Assembly (NCBI RefSeq): GCF_045037415.1
Contig: NZ_CP173438.1
Origin: Escherichia coli
GTDB lineage: Bacteria > Pseudomonadota > Gammaproteobacteria > Enterobacterales > Enterobacteriaceae
Reading direction: 5' to 3' (one strand)
Length of the DNA stretch: 64,000 nt
The first letter of the stretch is position 1, and each line of letters opens with the position of its first letter. The translations under genes were made by a program, and so were the position numbers. Under the pieces are notes generated by a model. It was not told where the DNA came from, made no database searches, and was given only the letters and a program-made list of their open reading frames with translations. Below are positions 1-28,815 of the stretch, piece by piece.

Positions 1-3000
1 GTCTGGGAGATGCCCCAGACCGGTTTGAGCAGATTACGCCGGGCGAGGAAGTTATCCTGCTCAAAGCCCAGCGCGCTGGTAAAGACGACGGGCATCGGAA
101 CGGCTGGCACGTTTTGCCGTTGCGCCAGTTGACGCATCACGCGGATGGCTGACACATCGCGGTGGTTGAGGTTCTGGCTCAGCCGCTGCTGTAGTGACTG
201 CGCGCTGTGCAGCCAGCTTTCGCCGGGATGCCAGCTCAGCAGCATCAGCGAGGTGAAATCGCCCAGAATCTGGTTGATTTGCGGGTGCAGCGGTCGCCTG
301 TCGAAAAGCGTAAGGTTAAGCGTGAACTCAGGCTGTGCACTCCATGCAGAGAGAACCGTTGACCACACCGACAACAGTACGGCCGACGGGGTGAGATGGG
401 CGTCAGCCGCCCGTTTTTTCAGCCGATGCCAGCGCGTGCTGTCCAGTGCGCCGTTCAGGCGGGCGAAGCGCGGTGTTTCAACCTCCTGAGGCAAGCAGCG
501 CAGCGGCAACGCAGGCGCCGGAGGAATATCATCAAGCTGCGCCTGCCACCATGCCAGAGAATCTGGATTGGGCGACTGTAGCGAGGGTTGTTGCAGATAA
601 TCCCTGAAGGTGACGGGCAGCGGCGGAAGCAGCTGTTGCGGGTAGCGGTAGCCGTGCTCCAGCTCCGCCAACAGAATCTGCATGCTCAGCCCGTCAAGTA
701 ACAGGTTATCCAGACACAGCCACAGGCGGGCGGGCATCCCGTCAACGTAACCGACCTGGAGATCGAATACCGGCCAGACTTCGGGGTTGAGTACCTGATG
801 GGCCAGTTTTTCGCGCACCTGCAACGCCTCTTCAGGCGTATGGAGGATGTGTGCGGGTATTACCCAGCGAGGCGTCTGTTCGAGCACCTGTTGCTGTCCA
901 TCACGCACGACGGCGCGTAGCATATCGTGGCGGGCGATTAATCGGTTCCAGACCGTCTCCAACCGGGTGAGATCCAGATCGGCAATTTCAAATTCAACAA
1001 AGAAATGTGAGCCGACGCCGCCCAGGGCAAAGCCCGGCTGACGCCCCACTAGGTAAGCCTGCTGCACGTCGGTAAGCGCAAAGGGCTGGTAGCGATCTTC
1101 AGGGGAGTGGACGAATGGTTGTTCGACCGGGACGTCGGTTTTCCGCAGCGTGGCGGCAAAATCCGCCAGCCGGGGATGATTAAACAGGTCGCTTAATTGC
1201 GCTTCATAACCTGCCTGATGAAGTTGCCCGGTCAGACGGGTCGCCAGCAGGCTATCGCCGCCTTGCTGGAAGAAGTCGGTTTCTCTGGTGACATTGCCAG
1301 TTGATAAGAGTTGCTGCCAGAGGGCGGCAACCTGTTTTTCAATGTCGCCCTGGGGTAAATCCGCTTCGGCCGGGTTTTCCGCTTCAGGGGTATGACGACG
1401 CTTCAGCGCCTGGTAGTCAATTTTCCCGTTAGCCGTCAGCGGTAAGGCGTCGAGGAAGACGATCCGTTGCGGCACCATCCACCCCGGCAGACGCCCGGCG
1501 AGGGCGGCCTGAAGTTGACGGGGATCGCGGCGCACCTGCCTGTCAGGACATTGTACGAGGAAGCGTTGTAACCCCGCGACCTCATCGCCATGCTGACAGT
1601 TGAAGCCGGCCGCGCTAAATAATGCCGCCCAGTCGGCGCTGTTATGCAGCAAGGCCTCCGGCTGCCCATTGGTTAACAGGAGCGTGCTGAGTAGGGCGGA
1701 CGGCGTTAACTGGCGAAACTCCATCACGTAGAGCAGCGCGCCGGGAACGGCAAGCTGTTGTAATGTCGCAAGGAGCCCGGGATCTTCCGGCAGCAGACGA
1801 TGCAGGGCGTTATTAAGCCAGATAATGTCCGCCGAGTGAGCGTGCGCCGCCAGCGTGTCTGCATTCCAGAGGGACAGACGGGCGCCAGGCCAGGGGGCGA
1901 GCCTCTGCCGGGCGCTCAGCAGCATCTCCTGGCTCTGCTCAAGCCCGACATACTCAATCTGTCCGGCGTTGAGCTGTGCTAACAGCGATTCTGCGGCGCG
2001 GCCAGTGCGGGTTCCCACCTCAAGCAGGCGCACCGGGCGCTGTAAGCGCTGTGCAAGCTGTTGGCAAATTGTCGCCAGTTCCTGAATATACGGGGCGCTG
2101 GCCGGATGGTTAAAGGCCAGGCTTTCCGGCGACCACTGCGCGTCGTTCAGTAACGACAGTTCGTTACGGGCACCGCGAAGAATTTGCGATAACGTTAAAT
2201 CATGTCCGCTGAAGTGCGGGTGCTCATCCTCGCGTTCTTCACCAGCGCAGACCTGATAACCTTCAGCAGCGGGCTTCAGTCGCCGTTGTGTCACCAGAAA
2301 TGCTAACCAGCGTTCCACCACGGCCTGCCAGCGCGGCTGGATAGCGAGTGAGTTCATCAGGGGGAGAGGATCGGCGCCAGCGGTGTGACCCGGCTTCAGT
2401 TTTAGCAGGCGATGCTGAAGGAAATCGGCTACCTGTTCTGCGGAGATCTCTGGCGAGATGGCGCAACAGGGCAACGTTCCCGCAAGCGTGTGCCACGCCT
2501 GCGGCAGTGCCGGGTTCCGATGATCGGTAACGCAAAAAGCCTCGCCCTGAGGAACAACGTATGCCGCCAGCGTTTTTTCTTTTTCGCCGATCGCCAGAAC
2601 GGTTGCTTGTTTCACCCCCGCCAGCTGGCTGAGCGCGCTTTCGATTTCGCCCAGCTCGATGCGATATCCTCCGACTTTGACCTGCTTGTCGCGACGACCG
2701 AGGAACTCGATTGTGCCATCTGGCCAGTAGCAGCCGAGATCGCCGGTGCGATACCAGCGCTCGTCCGGGAGCGTCAAAAATTGCTGCTCGCTACGCAGGG
2801 GATCGTTGAAATAGCCTTCCGCGACCCCAATGCCGCCAATCCATAATTCACCCGGCACCCAGTCAGGGCAGTCCCGGCCCTGTTCATCCACCACCCGGTA
2901 GCGTTGGTTGGTTAGCGGAAAACCGTAAGGGATGGAGCGCCAGTGGGCGGGGACGTCGTGAATTTCGCAGGCGTTAGACCAGATAGACGCCTCGGTGGCA

Positions 3001-15855: not shown

Positions 15856-15900
15856 AAATTCAATCACTTACACATCATTAAGTCAGTGACAAAAATCACA

Positions 15901-15933
15901 CTTGGAATTACTTGGAATATTTTCTTGGAATAT
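15901..15933. repeat. Three direct repeats of CTTGGAAT(A/T)T, putative integrase arm-type binding sites
   Basis: CTTGGAATTA, CTTGGAATAT, CTTGGAATAT within 33 bp next to attL core, overlapping int 3' end; related copies at 55774-55783 and inverted at 55838-55846. Confidence 0.45.
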
Positions 15934-16933
15934 TTTCAGGTAACGGGACATCAAGTGTTGGTGAAACTTTAACCTTCCTGTCATAGATTAGCACTTGCCC
16001 CTCGGTTTTGTGACCAGAGAAAAGTTGCTTATCCCGGCTGCTTCCTTCATAGTCTGAAATTCCTTTCGCCTTCAGATCATGAAAGGTGAAGTCGGTTAAA
16101 ATACCTGAAATTTTGCCTGCGCGATTTCTTGCTTCTACCCACATTTCGTTAAAGCCTTTGTACATATATCGGTTGCCATATTGATTGCTGATTACATAGA
16201 CGGATGCTGGTAACTGTTTTGCTTTTTCGATCGCCGCCTGTAATCGTGGACTCCATGCTTTTATCTGTTTTTTCCCTGTTTTCCCTTGCTGGATAAAGAT
16301 CCCGTCGTTTCCAATCTGCTCCCATTTCAGTGATAACACATCGGAAACCCTCGCTGCACACAGATAGGCAATTTCCATTGCGATAAAAACAGGAAGAGGT
16401 GCAACGCTTAATACTGCCTGGTATTCTTTGTCGGTTACATATCGTTCGCGGTTTTTGGCCTTGAATTTACTTACACCTGCACATGGGTTAGCCTTCACGT
16501 ACCCTCGCTCATATCCCCAACTGTAAACGCGGGACATACTGCTTTTTTCATGGTTGGCTTGCGTTTTGCTCTGTTCCCCTCTTTTGTCCATGTATCGACG
16601 GATGTGTTCTGGTTTTATGGAATCCGCTGGTACCTTACCGAATACGGCAAGCAACTTTTTTTGATGTTGCAGATAATCTTTTTGTGTTCTTGGGCTAAGG
16701 TCACTGTAACAGGCGCTGGCGAGGAATTTTTCCCACAAGCGACCGAATGTCATTGCACGATCGCGATTATTTACAGTTTCCTCATACTTTTTCCATAAAG
16801 CAGCTAAACCATCCTTGATGGCGGTTAGTGTTACAGATTCTCTGGATGTTGGTTTCCATACATAACTATATTTATTTGGGTATACATTTGGAGGTAATTT
16901 TTCGTGTTCAGGATTTTTCCTTCGTCTTCCCAT
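15908..16933 (-). CDS. int: Phage tyrosine integrase
   Basis: 341-aa ORF next to attL/tRNA; C-terminal recombinase-type region (candidate HxxR and Tyr motifs). Confidence 0.9.
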   Translation of the reverse strand: MGRRRKNPEHEKLPPNVYPNKYSYVWKPTSRESVTLTAIKDGLAALWKKYEETVNNRDRAMTFGRLWEKFLASACYSDLSPRTQKDYLQHQKKLLAVFGKVPADSIKPEHIRRYMDKRGEQSKTQANHEKSSMSRVYSWGYERGYVKANPCAGVSKFKAKNRERYVTDKEYQAVLSVAPLPVFIAMEIAYLCAARVSDVLSLKWEQIGNDGIFIQQGKTGKKQIKAWSPRLQAAIEKAKQLPASVYVISNQYGNRYMYKGFNEMWVEARNRAGKISGILTDFTFHDLKAKGISDYEGSSRDKQLFSGHKTEGQVLIYDRKVKVSPTLDVPLPENIPRKYSK

Positions 16934-17136: not shown

Positions 17137-17194
17137 AGCTATATCTCATAACCGCCGCTAACTATATGCGGTTAGCGGCGATCAGGGTTGAACA

Positions 17195-19669
17195 TTAAAA
17201 ATCAGCCTGACTCGGGATCAGTTTTTGCCAGATAGCTGAAACGTATTTTGCCTGGTAACGGGCGTCATCAAGTGCATTATGGCGCTCACCTTCGAATGGA
17301 ATAGCCGTTCTGGCATCGAAGTCTATGGCTTTCCCCAGCTCAACGATTGTGCGTACATCGCGATCGTTGTAGTAACGCCACGGGCAGGGGATCCCCTGCC
17401 GTTCGTATGAACGGCGCAAAATTGTGTTGTCGAAGTTGGCTCCATTTCCCCAGACCTGAACAAAAAATTCACCGGAGTTTTCGTCGATAAATTCCCGCAA
17501 TTGTAACAGTGCATCATCTAACGGGATTTCATCGGTCATAATGGCAGATTGCGCTTCGCGTGATTGCTTAAGCCACCATTTAATGGTGCCACGATCAATG
17601 ACTCCGCCAGCAGTATCCATATCGATGGTCTTACTAAATTCCGGCCCCATATCTCCGGTTTGCGGATCGAAAAATATTGCACCTATTGAGATAAGCGGGG
17701 CATCGGGATTTTTTCCCATGGTTTCAAGGTCGATCATCATGTGGTGCCACATTCTGCTGGTGGATGTGATTTTATGATGACCGTTCATGGTAATTAAGGG
17801 ATTTGCCGTCCCGCCAGCTTCATTATCGCTGGTGTGATGCTGATTACCGCCAGCGTTCTCTTTGTGCGGATATTCAACACGTTCCATTTCCTCCGGATCA
17901 TTTTCCTGAACTTCAACCTGATTCTCTTCATTGAATGTTTCCTGGTATGTTGCGTCACCCATCACCGCGCCACAATCAGGGCAGTTGCCGCCGCCGGTCT
18001 GACCGCAGGCGGTGCAGACTTTTTCCGGTTCCTGTTGCGCTACTGGTTCAGGTTGTTTCGTTTCTGGCTCGTTTTGTAACGCATTTGGGCTGTTTTGTTC
18101 CGCTTTCTGGCCGTTCTGTTCCGTTTCTTGCTGGTTCTGATTCACTGAATCGCGGGTTTCAATCCCCTTCACCCATTTCGGATCATTCGGGTCGCTAATC
18201 CCTGCAACAAATTCACCACGTGATACAGCAAGCAACTTATTGGCGTCAGGCTGGCTGATATTGGCTGCCTGCATAATTTTGTTTACTTCGTCAGCGGTAA
18301 CTTTTATCGGCTCTGGTTGTGCGATCGTGTCAGATGCACCAGTATTTTGTTGTGAACCTGAGTACGTGCCGTTTTTACGTGCGAAGTATTCCTCTTTTGT
18401 GATTTCCGTAGCTCCCAGGGCCAGTGCTTTTTCCAGACCAGAAAGTTTGTTTGCGCGACCGTATTTTTCGCCGTCCTTATCGGTGAAAAGGAAGTAGAAC
18501 GGTCCCTCACGCTCTACAGATGGTTCGTCTTCCACTTCGCATTCGGTTTTTTCGTTGTCCGGCATTGCCGTTTCCACTGCATCAGTTTCTGGTACTGGTG
18601 ACGGGAGAGTACCAGCTGTGCCCTGATTTGTTCCTTCGTCATCTTCAAACACGCCCTTGGTAGTCAGGTATTCAGTGATGTATTTGTTCAGTGCTACGGG
18701 ATCTTTGTGAATGTCGATCGGACGCTCACGGACAAGGCCAAAAATAGTCTGACGGTCGTAGCGAACGGCATCGGGTTGTTTGCGCATTGATGCGGAAATG
18801 CGCTTCCAGTCTTCGCGATCTTTGTCGATAACTTCATTTTTTGCCCAGCGATGGATGCTGCCGTCAATGTTTCCGGTATCAATATCGCCAGGCCAGAGAG
18901 CGTAGGCCAGTTCTTCATCCAGCGTTTTCCATGTCTGCTTGTATTCGCGACAAATGGCGGCAGTGACTGGGTTGATTTTTCCTGCTGAGTTTTCAGTGTT
19001 CTGTTGATTGACTCTGGCGCTGGCGAGATCAACAACAGACGTGTATTTTCCAGTCTCTTTGCGCTCTGCGTCCTGCCGTTTTTTCCAGTTACGTAATTCA
19101 GCCTGAATTTCGGGCCATTTGGCACCCGGATTACATTTGTGTTTAACCCATCCGATAGCGAACAGTTTGCGTTCCGGATACATAGCGTTAATTTCAGGCG
19201 TTTTCATCAGTGCTTCAACGATATGCCCGTCAAAGGTAGCAACGTCTTCCTGCAGTAATTCCTGCGCGTCAATCGCCATATCAACGGTGATGTTTTCACA
19301 TGTACCGAACTTAACCAGGACCGCGTTCTGTACTTCAAGGGACAGCTTGTCAAAATTGACGTTCATCGGATCGGATTCTGGTTCGACCGGAATAAAGGAA
19401 GCGGATTCCTCATCCCAGCGGTTTTCCTGCATATATTCAGCATCCCAGGAATCGAGGGCAGGGCGGGGTATACCGGGTTTATCCTCGCAAACAAGAAATT
19501 TATAAGCGCAGTCCTGAGCAGCCGGATAATGTTCCAGGAATTGCCAGTGAAATTTTGCGCGGGCGCGACGTTCATCACCGGCTTCAATGGCAGTGGCTAC
19601 AGCGACGGCACCTTCTTCCTTTATTGCCTGTTCGTCCGGAATGGCGGCGCAAATAAAGACTTTACTCAT
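17195..19669 (-). CDS. Large phage exonuclease (C-terminal DnaQ-like 3'-5' exonuclease domain, Cys-rich zinc-finger-like segment)
   Basis: 824-aa ORF; C-terminal region with exonuclease-type acidic motifs (MIDLETMG ... HNALDDA); CTACGQTGGGNCPDCG Cys cluster; resembles exodeoxyribonuclease VIII-like prophage proteins. Confidence 0.7.
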   Translation of the reverse strand: MSKVFICAAIPDEQAIKEEGAVAVATAIEAGDERRARAKFHWQFLEHYPAAQDCAYKFLVCEDKPGIPRPALDSWDAEYMQENRWDEESASFIPVEPESDPMNVNFDKLSLEVQNAVLVKFGTCENITVDMAIDAQELLQEDVATFDGHIVEALMKTPEINAMYPERKLFAIGWVKHKCNPGAKWPEIQAELRNWKKRQDAERKETGKYTSVVDLASARVNQQNTENSAGKINPVTAAICREYKQTWKTLDEELAYALWPGDIDTGNIDGSIHRWAKNEVIDKDREDWKRISASMRKQPDAVRYDRQTIFGLVRERPIDIHKDPVALNKYITEYLTTKGVFEDDEGTNQGTAGTLPSPVPETDAVETAMPDNEKTECEVEDEPSVEREGPFYFLFTDKDGEKYGRANKLSGLEKALALGATEITKEEYFARKNGTYSGSQQNTGASDTIAQPEPIKVTADEVNKIMQAANISQPDANKLLAVSRGEFVAGISDPNDPKWVKGIETRDSVNQNQQETEQNGQKAEQNSPNALQNEPETKQPEPVAQQEPEKVCTACGQTGGGNCPDCGAVMGDATYQETFNEENQVEVQENDPEEMERVEYPHKENAGGNQHHTSDNEAGGTANPLITMNGHHKITSTSRMWHHMMIDLETMGKNPDAPLISIGAIFFDPQTGDMGPEFSKTIDMDTAGGVIDRGTIKWWLKQSREAQSAIMTDEIPLDDALLQLREFIDENSGEFFVQVWGNGANFDNTILRRSYERQGIPCPWRYYNDRDVRTIVELGKAIDFDARTAIPFEGERHNALDDARYQAKYVSAIWQKLIPSQADF

Positions 19670-20147: not shown

Positions 20148-20705
20148 TCAACAATGAATTTTTAGCAATTGCTCCACAGTCATATTTTTAATTGCGCTCC
20201 GGTTTACAAGAGTCCATCCTTGTTTCTCCAGATAAAACCGGAAGGTATCCAGGGTGCAGACCATTGCGCCGTCAGGAACGGTTTCAGTGAATTTGATATT
20301 GCCGTGTTCGTCGAGACGGATAACCAGGGTGCGTCCGTCCCCGTGAATCATTTTGTCGGGAGACGGGGCGTTATTCTGGCGCAGTTCTTCCTCCATGCGA
20401 TCGAACTCAGCGATGTAGGCTTCTTTGAAAGTTGCGGCTTTTTTACCTGTGAACCCCATCACCAGGAAAACGAAGCCGTTTTTGGTGATTTGGTACATTG
20501 GGAGTTTGCGCCCGGTTGAGTCGGTGTATTCGCTCGACACAAAATTGTGCTCAGTGAATTTTGCTGAACAGTCCAGATTGCGAATTTTATCCAACACTCG
20601 TTCGTGGCGTTTGCCAAAGAACTCGGCGATCGCAACAGACGTAGTGACAGCGCGACCATTTTCGATGGTTACGTCAGGGTGAGAAAGGGTAAGGATAGTA
20701 GCCAT
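20148..20705 (-). CDS. Rha-family phage regulatory protein (antirepressor-like)
   Basis: Rha-type N-terminal motif VTTSVAIAEFFGKRHERVLDKIRNL; start set at the internal ATG preceded by GGAGG (20705) rather than the track start at 21002. Confidence 0.6.
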   Translation of the reverse strand: MATILTLSHPDVTIENGRAVTTSVAIAEFFGKRHERVLDKIRNLDCSAKFTEHNFVSSEYTDSTGRKLPMYQITKNGFVFLVMGFTGKKAATFKEAYIAEFDRMEEELRQNNAPSPDKMIHGDGRTLVIRLDEHGNIKFTETVPDGAMVCTLDTFRFYLEKQGWTLVNRSAIKNMTVEQLLKIHC

Positions 20706-20873
20706 GATGGCAGCCTCCGCGATGAATTTGATTAACTCACCACCGAGGTTTTCCACGACCATAAGGGTGGTGAGACGTACAGGGGTGGAAATACCGGTCA
20801 TCACGGAACCCGGCCAGCCTTGCGGCTGCCCTGCACGCCCCACCATAATGCGAATGTGGCTGTGCTTAACGCA

Positions 20874-20898
20874 TAAAAAAACCGCCTGAGCGCGGTTA
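20874..20898 (-). terminator. Rho-independent terminator (minus strand) upstream of rha
   Basis: On minus strand AACCGC-GCTCAG-GCGGTT followed by TTTTTTTAT. Confidence 0.45.
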
Positions 20899-21540
20899 TG
20901 CGCCGTGAATGATTTCGGGTTTCCACGCCCGGCACCCGTTTTATGAGGTGCAGGTGCACTATAATTCCACCCGTTCTGGTTTTCAATAGCTACATTCAAC
21001 ATTTTCTCTACCTTTCATCACCGAAGTGAACTTTGTTGATGCGGTGCCTGGTGCCTCCAGGTGACGTTAACCAGTTAACAATTAACGCCGGATACAGAGA
21101 ATCCACCCATAACACTGTTTTTGGTTTTAACTGTTCCGCGTGCGCTTAGCCGCATTCACCGCATCACAAAATTCACTTTAAAAAGGGCGGCAGAGCAGTC
21201 ACGGAGTAGAACTGATACCGCCAAAAGTCACCAGAAAATTGATAACAGAGGGCGTTGCAGCGGGGTTGTCACTTAAGCGTATGGTCAACCTGACAACCCG
21301 GTGTCCTCAACGGGGGAAGGAATAACCCCGCCATACTTACCGCCGCGCCATTTCGCGGATTGCCACAACCGGAAGCGCACGGTCGACGAAAATTTAACGA
21401 CTACCTACAGAGAGACGAACTTCGCCGTGCGCTTTCGCGTTATGCCCTGACTTTTCAGGGATATATCCTTTTCAGTAAACTGTCAGTGCCGGATTCTTAT
21501 CCGTGTCCGGCGCACGCACTCTACCTCACCTGTGAATAAA

Positions 21541-22158: not shown

Positions 22159-22172
22159 TTAGAATAATCTAA
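22159..22172. promoter_or_regulatory. Putative operator TTAGAATAATCTAA (TTAG-N6-CTAA palindrome), left operator
   Basis: Same 14-bp palindromic pattern as two sites in the repressor/cro intergenic region. Confidence 0.4.
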
Positions 22173-22286
22173 GAATTGTGGTCAAGCTTTTTGTGTAGAA
22201 AAACCTAAGTTTTTTTGATGTAAAAAACACAATCATTTGAAAGTTTGTGCTTTTTATTACAGAGAGTGGCGAAAAAAAAGGGGGGG

Positions 22287-22694
22287 TTATTTATTTGCGC
22301 TTCTTTTGCGAGCTTTGAGTAGTTCTTCAAAAAGTTTGTTGAAATTCTCAACTCGAGCACGCATCTCTGACAACAGAGCCTTTTGCTCTGACTCAGGCAG
22401 TGCGTCGAACAGTTGAAGCAACTCTTTTTGATCTTCTGTCAGATTAACTGGCTGATTATCTGGGATCGGTTCGCCTGGTTGCTTATCTTCATCTCCAAAA
22501 AGAAGCCAAGTCGGCGAGCACTGAAGCGCCTGGCTCAGTGCGAATAATCTCTTCCCCGCTGGCTGTGTTTCATCTCTTTCCCATTGAGAAATTGTTACGT
22601 GAGCCACTTTGACCAGCTTACCTAATGCGGCCTGAGACAGTTTTAATTTTTTACGCCTGTATAAGAGGCGAGCACCGAAGGTTTCGTTTTTCAT
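22287..22694 (-). CDS. Phage repressor, XRE/CI-type helix-turn-helix
   Basis: 135-aa ORF; N-terminal HTH SQAALGKLVKVAHVTISQWERDETQP; divergent from a Cro-like gene. Confidence 0.75.
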   Translation of the reverse strand: MKNETFGARLLYRRKKLKLSQAALGKLVKVAHVTISQWERDETQPAGKRLFALSQALQCSPTWLLFGDEDKQPGEPIPDNQPVNLTEDQKELLQLFDALPESEQKALLSEMRARVENFNKLFEELLKARKRSANK

Positions 22695-22695
22695 A

Positions 22696-22709
22696 TTAGG
22701 TAATTCTAA
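22696..22709. promoter_or_regulatory. Putative operator TTAGGTAATTCTAA abutting repressor start codon
   Basis: TTAG-N6-CTAA palindrome; a TTGACT -35-like hexamer follows at 22716-22721. Confidence 0.4.
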
Positions 22710-22746
22710 TTTTTCTTGACTTAGGTTTCTCTACGATCTAGTTTCC

Positions 22747-22760
22747 TTAGGAAAATCTAA
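22747..22760. promoter_or_regulatory. Putative operator TTAGGAAAATCTAA just upstream of cro RBS
   Basis: Third TTAG-N6-CTAA palindrome, immediately 5' of GGAG and ATG 22771. Confidence 0.4.
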
Positions 22761-22770
22761 GGAGTTCGAT

Positions 22771-22998
22771 ATGTTGAAAATTGATGCTATAGCGTTTTTT
22801 GGCAGCAAAACAAAGCTTGCCAATGCCGCAGGAGTTAGGCTGGCAAGCGTTGCTGCATGGGGGAAACTGGTTCCTGAAGGTCGCGCGATGCGTCTACAGG
22901 AGGCATCCGGCGGGGAACTTCAGTACGACCCCAAAGTTTATGACGAATATCGTAAGGCAAAGCGGGCGGGGCGGTTGAACAATGAAAATCACCCCTGA
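22771..22998 (+). CDS. Cro-like / YdaS-like small DNA-binding protein
   Basis: 75-aa ORF divergent from repressor with GGAG RBS; first gene of rightward early operon. Confidence 0.6.
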   Translation: MLKIDAIAFFGSKTKLANAAGVRLASVAAWGKLVPEGRAMRLQEASGGELQYDPKVYDEYRKAKRAGRLNNENHP

Positions 22999-23533
22999 AC
23001 AGGTTTGTGAGGCTCTGGATGCCTGGGTATGTCGACCAGGAATGACACAGGAGCAAGCGACGATATTAATCACGGAAGCATTCTGGGCTCTGAAAGAACG
23101 CCCGAACATCGATGTTCAACGCGTCACGTTTAATGATGGCGAGGTTGATCAACGGGCGCTGGGCGTTAACCGGGTGAAGATATTCGAACGCTGGAAAGCT
23201 ATCGACACCAGGGATAAGCGGAAAAAATTCACGGCGCTGATTCCGGCAATTATGGAGGCTATCCGAATTAGTGATTTCAGGTTGTATCGTGAGATCAGTG
23301 ATGGAAAAAGCATTACGTACATGATCGCCGGATTAAACAAAGAATATGGCGATGTGGTGGAGTCCGGGTTGCTTTTTGCGGATCCAGCTGTTGTGGAACG
23401 TGAGACTGACGAGCTTATAGAAAAAGCTATTGCTTTCAAGCATGCGTATCGTCAGCAATATCAATATTACTTTGCAGATAAACAAATGTCTGCCAGGGGT
23501 TTGTATGAGTATCGATGCACTACGATGGGCTAA
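22982..23533 (+). CDS. YdaT-like / CII-position regulatory protein
   Basis: 183-aa ORF overlapping cro-like stop; position equivalent to lambda cII or Rac ydaT; family assignment by recall only. Confidence 0.45.
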   Translation: MKITPEQVCEALDAWVCRPGMTQEQATILITEAFWALKERPNIDVQRVTFNDGEVDQRALGVNRVKIFERWKAIDTRDKRKKFTALIPAIMEAIRISDFRLYREISDGKSITYMIAGLNKEYGDVVESGLLFADPAVVERETDELIEKAIAFKHAYRQQYQYYFADKQMSARGLYEYRCTTMG

Positions 23534-24545
23534 AAAGGTGAAAACCGGCAGTTCATCCAGTAAGTCTGTATTGACCTGGCTTGCTGATATGTGCGGTGCC
23601 GATTTGTGTGCATACCCGTCTGTATCTGCACTGGCAGAAGTAACGGAACTAAACAAAAAGACTGTGCAGGACAGCTTACGACACCTGATGGAGATTGGGT
23701 TAATTGTTGATACCGGTGAGAGAAAAGGCAGAACAAAGCAAATTGTGGTGTACCGACTTATCGGTGTAGAAGAAAGTGTTGCCGAGCCTGAATACACCCA
23801 AAAACGGGAGTCTTTAAAGGTGGGTAAAATTGGTGCTGTTAATAAAAACAGTACCGAAAATGGTTATGTTTCAGCACAAAACAGACCCAAAAATGGAACT
23901 CTTAGCTGCATGGAAAATAACCAAAGACACCCAAATTTTCCATCAAAGACACCCAAAAACGGATCACGGAACCCAAAGGAACCCAAAGATCTAAACCCCA
24001 CACATAACGCACGCGAGAGTGCTCCGACCAGTGAGCAGGAAGTTTTGTCGTTACAGGCAGCACCCCTTGTATTCCTGGATGGCCTGAGCGAACCCATCGG
24101 AAAATTTCCGATGACCGATAGCTGGTATCCGTCACGGGATTTTCGACGACGGGCTGCGTTGTGGGGGATGGCTTTGCCGGAGACAGAATTTACACCTGCT
24201 GAACTTGCCGCCTTCCGGGACTACTGGGCAGCGGAGGGGAAAGTGTTTACGCAGATTCAGTGGGAGCAGAAATTCGCCCGTCACGTAAATCACGTCAGGG
24301 CGCAGGTTAAACCAGTCAGCAAGGGGGTAAACCATGCAGCAGCACCAGGTGGCACCGCATCACGGGCAGTTCAGGAAATTCGGGCAGCACGTGAGCAGTG
24401 GGAACGTGAAAACGGATTTATCAGCGACGGAAACAGTCTGGAAGCTGTGGGAACTCATGGGGGAGGTTTATTCGAACCGCTGGACCCAGAAGAACGGGGC
24501 CGCACCTTCGAAGCTCTGGATTGCACAGATTGGCGCGATGACTGA
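23505..24545 (+). CDS. Phage replication initiation protein (N-terminal winged-helix DNA-binding domain)
   Basis: Start chosen at MSIDALRWAKK; N-terminal domain typical of phage replication O-like/primosomal proteins; position after cro/cII-like genes. Confidence 0.55.
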   Translation: MSIDALRWAKKVKTGSSSSKSVLTWLADMCGADLCAYPSVSALAEVTELNKKTVQDSLRHLMEIGLIVDTGERKGRTKQIVVYRLIGVEESVAEPEYTQKRESLKVGKIGAVNKNSTENGYVSAQNRPKNGTLSCMENNQRHPNFPSKTPKNGSRNPKEPKDLNPTHNARESAPTSEQEVLSLQAAPLVFLDGLSEPIGKFPMTDSWYPSRDFRRRAALWGMALPETEFTPAELAAFRDYWAAEGKVFTQIQWEQKFARHVNHVRAQVKPVSKGVNHAAAPGGTASRAVQEIRAAREQWERENGFISDGNSLEAVGTHGGGLFEPLDPEERGRTFEALDCTDWRDD

Positions 24546-24999
24546 GCAGCAAATCCGACAGGTCTGCCGCCAGTGCATGGACCGCTGCCGGGCGGGTGAA
24601 ACATGGCCTCCGGACCTGGCTGAGTTTGTGGCGCTGATTTCAGAAAGCGGGGCCAATCCATTTGGCCTGACGGTGGATGCTGTGATGGAGGAGTACCGCC
24701 GCTGGCGTGATGAGTCCTGGCGATATGACGGAAGCGACAAATATCCGTGGCCTCAGCCTGTGCTGTACCACATCTGCCTCGAAATGCGTACCAGAGGGAT
24801 TGAGCGCCAGATGACGCAGGGTGAGTTAAAACGACTTGCGGAACGGCAACTGACGAAATGGGCAAAGCATGTTGGTAACGGGATGAGTGTTCCGCCAGTG
24901 CGACGACAACTGGAAGGGGCGAAACACCCGCAAGGGCCAACGCCAATTGAACGGCTGAAACAGGAATACGAACGCCGGAAGGCAGCTGGTTTTATTTGA
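24538..24999 (+). CDS. Hypothetical protein, possibly replication-associated
   Basis: ATG 24538 overlaps upstream stop (ATGACTGA coupling); Cys-rich segment CRQCMDRCRAGE; the longer track ORF from 24334 overlaps the previous gene out of frame. Confidence 0.4.
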   Translation: MTEQQIRQVCRQCMDRCRAGETWPPDLAEFVALISESGANPFGLTVDAVMEEYRRWRDESWRYDGSDKYPWPQPVLYHICLEMRTRGIERQMTQGELKRLAERQLTKWAKHVGNGMSVPPVRRQLEGAKHPQGPTPIERLKQEYERRKAAGFI

Positions 25000-28553: not shown

Positions 28554-28755
28554 ATACAGCGAACGCCATTGGTTTAGTTGGATATTTACTGTGCCGGACA
28601 AAAACGGTTTGCGGGGAAATCTTAGTTAAGTAGAATAACTGCGGGTGCTTGAGGCTATCTGTCTCAGGCATGAACACCAAAAGGCAGATAGAGAAAAGCC
28701 CCAGTTAACATTACGCGTCCTGCAAGACGCTTAACATTAATCTGAGGCCATATCT

Positions 28756-28815
28756 ATGCGACACATAGAGATTAGCCTCTTACGGACCGAAAGGTCAAGG
28801 AGAAGCAGGCTATGA
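28756..28815 (+). other. Short leader ORF (19 codons) ending in TGA overlapping the hok-like start; mok-like coupling frame
   Basis: ATG 28756, stop TGA 28813-28815 overlapping ATG 28812. Confidence 0.3.

Follow-up and report, generated by a model that had tools for sequence, protein, structure and literature searches.

A YdaT-family gene and its Cro-type partner in an Escherichia coli lambdoid prophage are probably analogues of CII and Cro

Introduction

Two short, overlapping genes at positions 22771-23533 of a 64,000-nucleotide (nt) stretch of Escherichia coli DNA (contig NZ_CP173438.1; this whole stretch is referred to as the window) raise the question of whether they form a toxin-like module or a regulator of the choice between lysis and lysogeny. 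A sequence-only reading had described them as a Cro-like gene and a YdaT-like gene at the cII position, at the start of a rightward operon, and had considered that a pair of the YdaS/YdaT type could be toxin-like. The coordinates, lengths and 17-nt overlap (22982-22998) given in that reading are all confirmed by the open reading frame (ORF) listing of the window:

22771-22998, plus strand: gene 1, 75 amino acids (aa), ATG start, Cro-type gene
22982-23533, plus strand: gene 2, 183 aa, ATG start, YdaT-family CII analogue; core residues 1-161, with residues 162-183 being an allele-specific tail

The toxin designation of such pairs has been discussed before. The ydaS-ydaT genes were flagged by an algorithm as a toxin-antitoxin (TA) pair, and the Pfam names persist; as argued by Jobling, the genetic context makes YdaS and YdaT the equivalents of Cro and CII, and over-production of CII is toxic too (PMC5917428). 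Jurenas et al. find that YdaS and YdaT of CP-933P are regulators, that this YdaT is non-toxic and the pair does not constitute a genuine TA system, and that YdaT turns on an otherwise silent reverse promoter (PMC8630535). The structure of this YdaT, described by Prolic-Kalinsek et al., consists of a POU-like helix-turn-helix (HTH) domain and a tetramerising helix (PMC9986795). For the Rac prophage, Wons et al. report that box-dependent reverse transcription toward racR is increased up to 29-fold, and they trace the toxicity of Rac YdaT to activation of the host gene rcsA (PMC11879457). In the analysis presented here, the pair of the window is very probably the early-right regulatory pair, made up of Cro and CII analogues, of a lambdoid prophage with Qin/DicA-type immunity, and not a toxin module.

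Results

The proteins encoded by gene 2 and gene 1

In the profile search, gene 2 matches Pfam PF06254 (YdaT_toxin) with 25.2 bits over residues 59-131, which is above the gathering score of 21, and its earlier assignment as YdaT-type is therefore upheld. PF06254 is present in every gene 2 homologue found. There is also an end-to-end match (E = 7e-42) with PHROG 163, whose name 'CII-like transcriptional activator' is a functional label for YdaT-type proteins. CII-family homology, which the sequence-only reading had set against a toxin-like role, is not detected, as no match of gene 2 to the lambda Phage_CII family (PF05269) is obtained in Pfam-A even at E ≤ 10 (HMMER filters on). This opposition is a false choice, YdaT being an analogue of CII and not a sequence-detectable homologue.

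The gene 2 family is small, the family alignment from two database searches comprising 63 representatives among 1.84 billion proteins. The BLASTP comparison with Rac YdaT gives a weak alignment of 29 residues (around ..IFERW...LIPAI..), and the sequence matches with PDB entries are marginal (E ~0.2 to 3c4r and 8bt1), for which reason a structure prediction was made. In the predicted structure (predicted local distance difference test score, pLDDT, of 84.6), a long C-terminal helix comes after an all-alpha, POU-like HTH domain whose alpha2-alpha3 loop is unusually long; the five best Foldseek matches of this structure in the PDB are all YdaT, with probability 1.00. In the alignments, N63, R70, W71, L86, P88, A89 and I90 are invariant. 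The R70-W71 pair aligns with the ..HRW.. sequence of Rac YdaT, and thus with Rac R57-W58 and with CP-933P R60, which are necessary for DNA binding in Rac (PMC11879457) and in CP-933P (PMC9986795), respectively. The identity, fold and conserved residues of gene 2 are established by these comparisons, and on the combined profile and alignment evidence it is a true YdaT-family protein.

The C-terminal end of gene 2 is of a different nature. DNA homology to a 173-aa allele stops at 23464 (residue 161), the protein alignment with this allele diverges past ...YRQQYQ, and the pLDDT of the tail is 50-62. Because the homology ends at this point, the last 22 residues are considered to be a mosaic-junction tail:

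23465-23533, plus strand: mosaic junction, with the DnaT-type replication gene beginning inside the C-terminal tail of gene 2

Gene 1 matches NCBIfam NF007282 (DicC) over residues 1-75 of 75 with 167.4 bits (cut-off 130) and Pfam PF14549 (P22_Cro) with 50 bits (cut-off 30.2); it is also similar to the P22 Cro structure (PDB entry 1rzs, E = 6.4e-7) and is 84% identical to K-12 DicC. Membership of the YdaS family, as proposed in the sequence-only reading, is not supported by the score of the YdaS profile PF15943 (22 bits, below its cut-off of 30) or by BLASTP, which gives no alignment of gene 1 with Rac YdaS. By these profile matches gene 1 is a DicC/P22-Cro-type regulator, the Cro analogue. A Shine-Dalgarno sequence, AAGGAG, is located 6 nt 5' of its ATG. 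Given the DicC score of 167 bits for gene 1 and the full-length homologues of gene 2, both ORFs are judged to be real genes.

A conserved site over the start codon of gene 2

The region in which the two genes overlap contains the following elements:

22975-22992: YdaT-box TTGAACAATGAAAATCAC, with the core TGA-N10-TCA, straddling the gene 2 start codon in the 17-nt overlap region, in the same register as the Rac box
22949-22954, minus strand: predicted -10-like hexamer TACGAT of a pRE-like promoter, 20 nt past the YdaT-box on the reverse strand

The ATG of gene 2 sits in the spacer of TTGAACAATGAAAATCAC, exactly as in the register of the footprinted YdaT-box of Rac, ATGATTCATGAAAATCAA, which lies over the Rac ydaT start codon (PMC11879457). 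The CP-933P YdaT footprint is described by the consensus TTGATT-N6-AATCAA (PMC9986795), which is fitted by the window's box at 9/12 positions. Because matches of this quality occur at chance frequency, the conservation of the box was tested, using start-codon contexts from distant homologue loci (31-47% identity, with unrelated upstream genes) and from 80 IMG/VR loci. The TGA-N10-TCA core is found over the start codon in all of the distinct contexts (25/25). Where the gene has one N-terminal codon fewer (MITPE...), its left half-site is displaced by 3 nt, such that the N10 spacing is retained, and the ATC/A nucleotide choices at the box are unvarying among the loci. This 3-nt shift and the unvarying choices argue for selection acting on the DNA of the YdaT-box itself, and not merely on the protein. 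The palindromy of the bases flanking the TGA/TCA core is inconsistent among the loci, and nothing is drawn from it; a search for the outer palindrome GTGA-N10-TCAC gave one unrelated match, and a generic inverted-repeat search returned weak pairs only.

The geometry on the reverse strand is also conserved. Past the 18-bp box, a TAnnnT hexamer is found at 20 nt (14 loci), 21 nt (20 loci) or 22 nt (one locus), that is in 35/35 distinct loci, and the intervening sequence is unrelated among these loci. The same box and spacing are seen in 3/3 further phages, one of them CP-933P-like and having a perfect published box, so that the layout is kept in 38 of the 38 distinct family loci, Rac included. 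By its 20-nt spacing from the -10 hexamer, the box would be centred near position -41.5 in a leftward promoter having no -35 element. This is the classical position of a class II activator. The leftward promoter, reading antisense through cro toward the repressor gene, is predicted to be the pRE analogue. It is by analogy with the published homologues that the gene 2 protein itself would bind this site, that these would be the exact promoters and that the activation would be of the class II type.

In the Rac prophage (locus L002, ~2130-2200, reverse strand), the sequence TATGAT is present exactly 20 nt past the footprinted YdaT-box. It may be, judging from this spacing, that the YdaT-activated promoter of Rac is the box-proximal one rather than PracR4, which is ~190 bp off; the Rac reporter construct, as described, held both the box-proximal region and PracR4 (PMC11879457). 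A generic promoter scan of the window finds nothing on the reverse strand within gene 1. The best reverse candidate in a scan with our own position weight matrix (PWM), TTGTTT-18-TAGCAT at 22813-22784, lies roughly at the position of Rac PracR4 and is not relied upon.

A second site upstream of the integration genes

A similar arrangement is found some distance to the left:

17188-17205: YdaT-box-like site TTGAACATTAAAAATCAG, which overlaps the exonuclease gene's stop codon and is upstream of the DUF4224 (xis-like)-integrase operon
17161-17166, minus strand: predicted -10-like hexamer TATAGT of a pI-like promoter, 21 nt past the box-like site, in a hairpin loop

When the 64 kb are searched with the window's own box, allowing ≤ 1 mismatch, two sites are obtained, TTGAACAATGAAAATCAC and TTGAACATTAAAAATCAG; on the minus strand the latter agrees with the former at 15/18 positions (counted by eye). 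The composite pattern of TGA-N10-TCA, 21-22 nt and TAnnnT occurs exactly twice in the window, at 22949-22991 and before xis/int, and both copies point leftward. The hairpin (~17149-17184), in whose loop TATAGT is located, has a GC-rich 14-bp stem (-22.4 kcal/mol, z = -4.9). The box near int persists beside three different integration modules, namely those of the window, of phage PhiR42_1 and of the RM14723 prophage, and in the latter two the -10 is at 20 nt, before their integration modules. This places the second module at the position expected of a pI analogue, where it would complete a CII-like regulon. A third, paQ-like site near the late-gene regulator was looked for, and none was convincing.

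Two other prophages with different xis/int genes (loci L094, 2632-2714, and L011, 6280-6351) also have a box and a hairpin with a -10 sequence, TATTCT, in its loop, and the stem sequences differ. It is possible that read-through transcripts fold this hairpin and that activator-dependent transcripts, which would start inside it, are made without it.

The immunity region and the early operon

The genes and sites around the pair are the following:

22287-22694, minus strand: DicA-type immunity repressor, 135 aa (NCBIfam NF007257 DicA, 241.6 bits, cut-off 101; Pfam HTH_3)
22696-22709, 22721-22734 and 22747-22760, between the repressor gene and gene 1: three operator-like palindromes TTAG-N6-CTAA, two perfect and one with 1 mismatch
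22159-22172 (perfect) and 22195-22208 (one mismatch), left of the repressor gene: two more TTAG-N6-CTAA sites, in an O_L/dicBp-like position
22716-22744, plus strand: predicted P_R-like promoter TTGACT-17-TAGTTT, overlapping the operator sites
22185-22156, minus strand: leftward promoter-like site TTGACC-18-TAAATT, overlapping the two operator-like sites left of the repressor gene
23505-24545, plus strand: next operon gene after the pair, an O-like replication initiator with HTH and DnaT domains (Pfam DnaT, 61.5 bits; PHROG replication initiation proteins)
24334-24999, plus strand: lambda-P-like helicase loader, downstream in the rightward operon

The pair is seen to open the rightward early operon, because the divergent HTH repressor gene is directly to the left of gene 1 and the replication genes come next, in agreement with the placement in the sequence-only reading. 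The repressor is 63% identical to K-12 DicA, and DicA and DicC form a bistable CI/Cro-like switch (PMC10448788). Perfect TTAG-N6-CTAA palindromes occur three times in the 64 kb, every one of them flanking the repressor gene, and this sequence fits the motif TT(A/C/T)G...C(G/A/T)AA obtained for DicC by chromatin immunoprecipitation (PMC11430063). The P_R-like promoter, a prediction scored with our own PWM, has the top score in a 10-kb background.

On the minus strand, a P_RM-like candidate is present at 22703-22733, with a -10 sequence, TAGAAT, at 22708-22703, overlapping the first operator. It would start transcription 0-2 nt before the repressor ATG (22694), and there is no Shine-Dalgarno sequence upstream of this ATG, which suggests that the repressor may be translated from a leaderless mRNA. 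Lambda cI and CP-933P paaR2 are expressed from leaderless mRNAs.

Distribution of the pair and its relatives

The synteny is well established. The order of a divergent repressor gene, a rightward Cro or YdaS gene, a YdaT-like gene and replication genes is kept in six distant loci, and the YdaT-like genes are partnered by unrelated Cro types, P22_Cro/DicC in the window and YdaS elsewhere. The 173-aa allele of gene 2 is found at the cII position in the plaque-forming or complete phages mEp460, HannyBb and PhiR42_1, the last of which is annotated as cI/Cro/cII. A 901-nt query region is present at 100% identity in many complete E. coli genomes, and 1171/5426 complete E. coli genomes hold ≥ 80% of it. 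In the Prokaryotic Genome Annotation Pipeline (PGAP) gene 1 is named 'Cro/CI family transcriptional regulator' (WP_000912294.1) and gene 2 'toxin YdaT family protein' (WP_000705383.1). The pair is thus already known and annotated; it is a standard immunity-region module and carries little weight as a discovery.

The 20 kb around the pair are 100% identical to DNA of strain THO-003 and of others. The THO-003 copy is a lambdoid prophage by tRNA-Ser/mtfA, and its integrase is annotated as frameshifted.

Other features of the prophage

The DicF RNA is encoded in the leftward operon (21185-21236, minus strand, 71.5 bits). Two Rfam families, the isrK RNA (20875-20951) and the C4 antisense RNA (20763-20850), are matched within a gene for a Rha/Ash-family regulator (20148-21002). 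According to the PGAP annotation of identical DNA, this gene is flanked by a dicB fragment and, on the opposite side, by an intact dicB, an arrangement suggestive of the insertion of an anti-repressor-type module into the dicB region. The prophage integrase of the window (15883-16933) is in the frameshifted form according to the annotation of the identical THO-003 DNA, and the prophage may therefore be unable to integrate or excise. Immediately to the left of the prophage, where the window begins, is the yersiniabactin island (ybtS), which has an integrase of its own at tRNA-Asn. The prophage does contain a true type I TA system, unrelated to the gene 1/gene 2 pair: a hok/sok-type locus (28643-28814; Rfam sok, 106.7 bits; hokD according to PGAP) farther along the rightward operon.

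Discussion

These data are consistent with the following mode of action. Gene 1 most likely binds the TTAG-N6-CTAA operators, which it would share with the DicA-type repressor, giving a bistable switch. Gene 2 would be translated from the P_R transcript after infection or derepression, and the 17-nt overlap suggests that its translation is coupled to that of cro. The gene 2 protein, with an Arg-Trp recognition helix in its POU-like HTH domain and a long C-terminal helix that probably serves oligomerisation, would bind the inverted repeat over its own start codon (22975-22992) and, from near -41.5, would recruit RNA polymerase to a leftward promoter without a -35 element, having its -10 sequence, TACGAT, at 22954-22949. 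The leftward transcript, running antisense through cro into the repressor gene, would establish repression, as expected for a pRE analogue. The near-identical box at 17188-17205, with the same spacing to TATAGT, would drive the xis-like/int operon, as a pI analogue. In this scheme the binding to the box, the activation of the reverse promoter and the formation of a tetramer are carried over from the published experiments on homologues. If forced expression should inhibit growth, this would be a secondary consequence of transcriptional control exerted on host targets rather than the activity of a toxin, as with Rac YdaT at rcsA and with DicC, which is reported at hundreds of sites and slows growth through host targets when over-produced (PMC11430063).

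The pair could instead be a toxin-like or TA-like module whose main role is growth inhibition, with YdaT or the Cro-like protein as a toxin that is checked by the neighbouring repressor. The names 'YdaT_toxin' (Pfam) and 'toxin YdaT family protein' (PGAP) are still in use, and Rac ydaS/ydaT, when derepressed or induced, kills the cells or makes them filament (PMC5700377, PMC5700373, PMC11879457). However, the toxicity of Rac YdaT comes from the activation of rcsA transcription (PMC11879457), the CP-933P YdaT is non-toxic and belongs to no bona fide TA system (PMC8630535), and lambda CII is toxic when over-produced and still a regulator (PMC5917428). Both proteins of the pair have HTH DNA-binding folds, neither has a match to a toxin family or to the PADLOC defence families, and the Cro-type partner varies by locus, unlike the co-evolving partners of TA systems; by these features the pair does not belong to the type II TA systems. 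The YdaT-like gene is, moreover, kept at the cII position in complete temperate phages, with a conserved promoter-like cis architecture around the YdaT binding site. The published homologue experiments, the fold, the variable partner gene and the cis architecture all speak against the toxin-like module envisaged in the sequence-only reading, and we regard it as extremely improbable.

Another explanation is that gene 2 is mainly a repressor or roadblock, which binds at its own start codon, within the P_R transcription unit, and thereby reduces the expression of itself and of the downstream replication genes while activating nothing. In every family member the box overlaps the start codon and the region proximal to the ribosome-binding site of gene 2, the structural paper calls YdaT a repressor and puts the CP-933P site downstream of the predicted PRE (PMC9986795), and in Rac a further YdaT binding site lies over PydaST, between the genes (PMC11879457). 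Such a role is nevertheless unlikely, as box binding in Rac changed ydaT expression little but raised reverse transcription up to 29-fold (PMC11879457), and as CP-933P YdaT switched on a silent reverse promoter (PMC8630535); it also leaves unexplained the strictly conserved reverse-strand -10-like hexamer at 20-22 nt and the second box before xis/int. Domestication of the pair in a possibly defective prophage, with a present role in host gene regulation like that of Rac YdaT (rcsA) and Qin DicC, would agree with the integrase annotated as frameshifted in identical DNA, with the wide occurrence of the identical pair in the complete E. coli genomes counted above and with the published host targets of the homologues. 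Set against this, host targets are not predictable here, and the window and Rac differ in recognition helix and box; both of the window's best sites lie inside the phage, where their positions suit its development; and nearly identical genes function in complete phages. As the present role of the pair, domestication is highly unlikely, and it adds to the explanation by a Cro/CII-like pair without replacing it.

Several points weigh against the reading of the pair as Cro and CII analogues, or against the promoters proposed for it. The published experiments concern the YdaT proteins of CP-933P and Rac, not the long-form (intact YdfX) subfamily. The published consensus, when searched with ≤ 3 mismatches, has 35 matches in the window, against 34.9 expected, which is the chance rate, and the box over the start codon of gene 2 is informative solely through its position and conservation. 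Part of the constraint on its right half-site comes, in addition, from the conserved N-terminal codons M-K-I. The composite pattern, counted twice against 0.77 expected, is not significant alone. The activated promoter of Rac has been put by Wons et al. at PracR4, ~190 bp from the box, and Prolic-Kalinsek et al. have put the CP-933P site downstream of their predicted PRE; the -41.5 geometry as deduced here would disagree with both placements. The integrase, finally, is annotated as frameshifted in identical DNA, and a role in the establishment of lysogeny may be vestigial in this copy.

With these points considered, we lean towards the view that the entire YdaT family uses one fixed design, having a start-codon box near -41.5, no -35 element and a -10 sequence at 20-22 nt. 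The box-proximal promoter would then be the true pRE analogue, rather than PracR4 or the CP-933P PRE, and the second module would be the pI analogue, with its -10 sequence in a hairpin loop. No description of this fixed design was found in the cited YdaT literature, and what appears mildly new is limited to the spacing of box and -10 across the family and to the second, int-proximal site. The spacing gives a cheap prediction of YdaT-dependent start sites, which for the two leftward promoters of the window would be near 22942 and 17154, and could reconcile the placements of the Rac and CP-933P promoters. The database name 'toxin YdaT family protein' is misleading, and gene 2 is better read as a CII-like activator of lysogeny establishment.

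Comparison with known systems

The nearest K-12 counterpart of the pair is dicC-ydfX of the Qin prophage, whose repressor is DicA, and not ydaS-ydaT of Rac. Qin has the same gene order and the same 17-nt overlap, and its likeness extends to the leftward operon, which also has a ydfA-like (DUF1391) gene, DicF and dicB. Qin YdfX (96 aa; locus L013, 1847-2137) is 89% identical to residues 1-93 of gene 2 (22982-23260), and because of this identity it is considered to be the truncated DNA-binding domain of the gene 2 protein, a remnant without the C-terminal oligomerisation helices; in the window the 183-aa gene is intact and the replication genes come after it. YdfX has been named by Wons et al., in one sentence, as the Qin YdaT homologue (PMC11879457), and elsewhere it is described as a protein of unknown function (PMC11430063). 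The 3' half of dicC and the box are almost identical in DNA between Qin and the window; in the operator region and the N-terminal half of DicC the two have diverged, implying that they differ in immunity specificity. A mosaic boundary is visible within gene 1, the 5' half (HTH, immunity-specific) and the operators being ~60-70% identical to Qin (L013, 2121-2351), and the 3' half of gene 1 from ~22880 onwards, the box and the start of gene 2 being ~97% identical; this latter block coincides with the predicted pRE-like region.

The closest characterised YdaT proteins are those of CP-933P (PDB entry 8bt1; also 3c4r) and of Rac. When compared with lambda, of which the biology of CII, pRE and pI is summarised in PMC9986795, the differences concern the protein and its site. 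There is no sequence-detectable homology to CII (no PF05269 match at E ≤ 10), and the site would be an inverted repeat near -41.5, whereas lambda has TTGC-N6-TTGC direct repeats flanking the -35. The published YdaT homologue is a 222-symmetric tetramer and lambda CII is an asymmetric dimer-of-dimers (PMC9986795). The logic and the position, however, are those of Cro, CII, pRE and pI of lambda: a leftward promoter that is antisense to cro and feeds the repressor gene would be activated by the product of the P_R operon's second gene, and a second site is present upstream of the integration genes.

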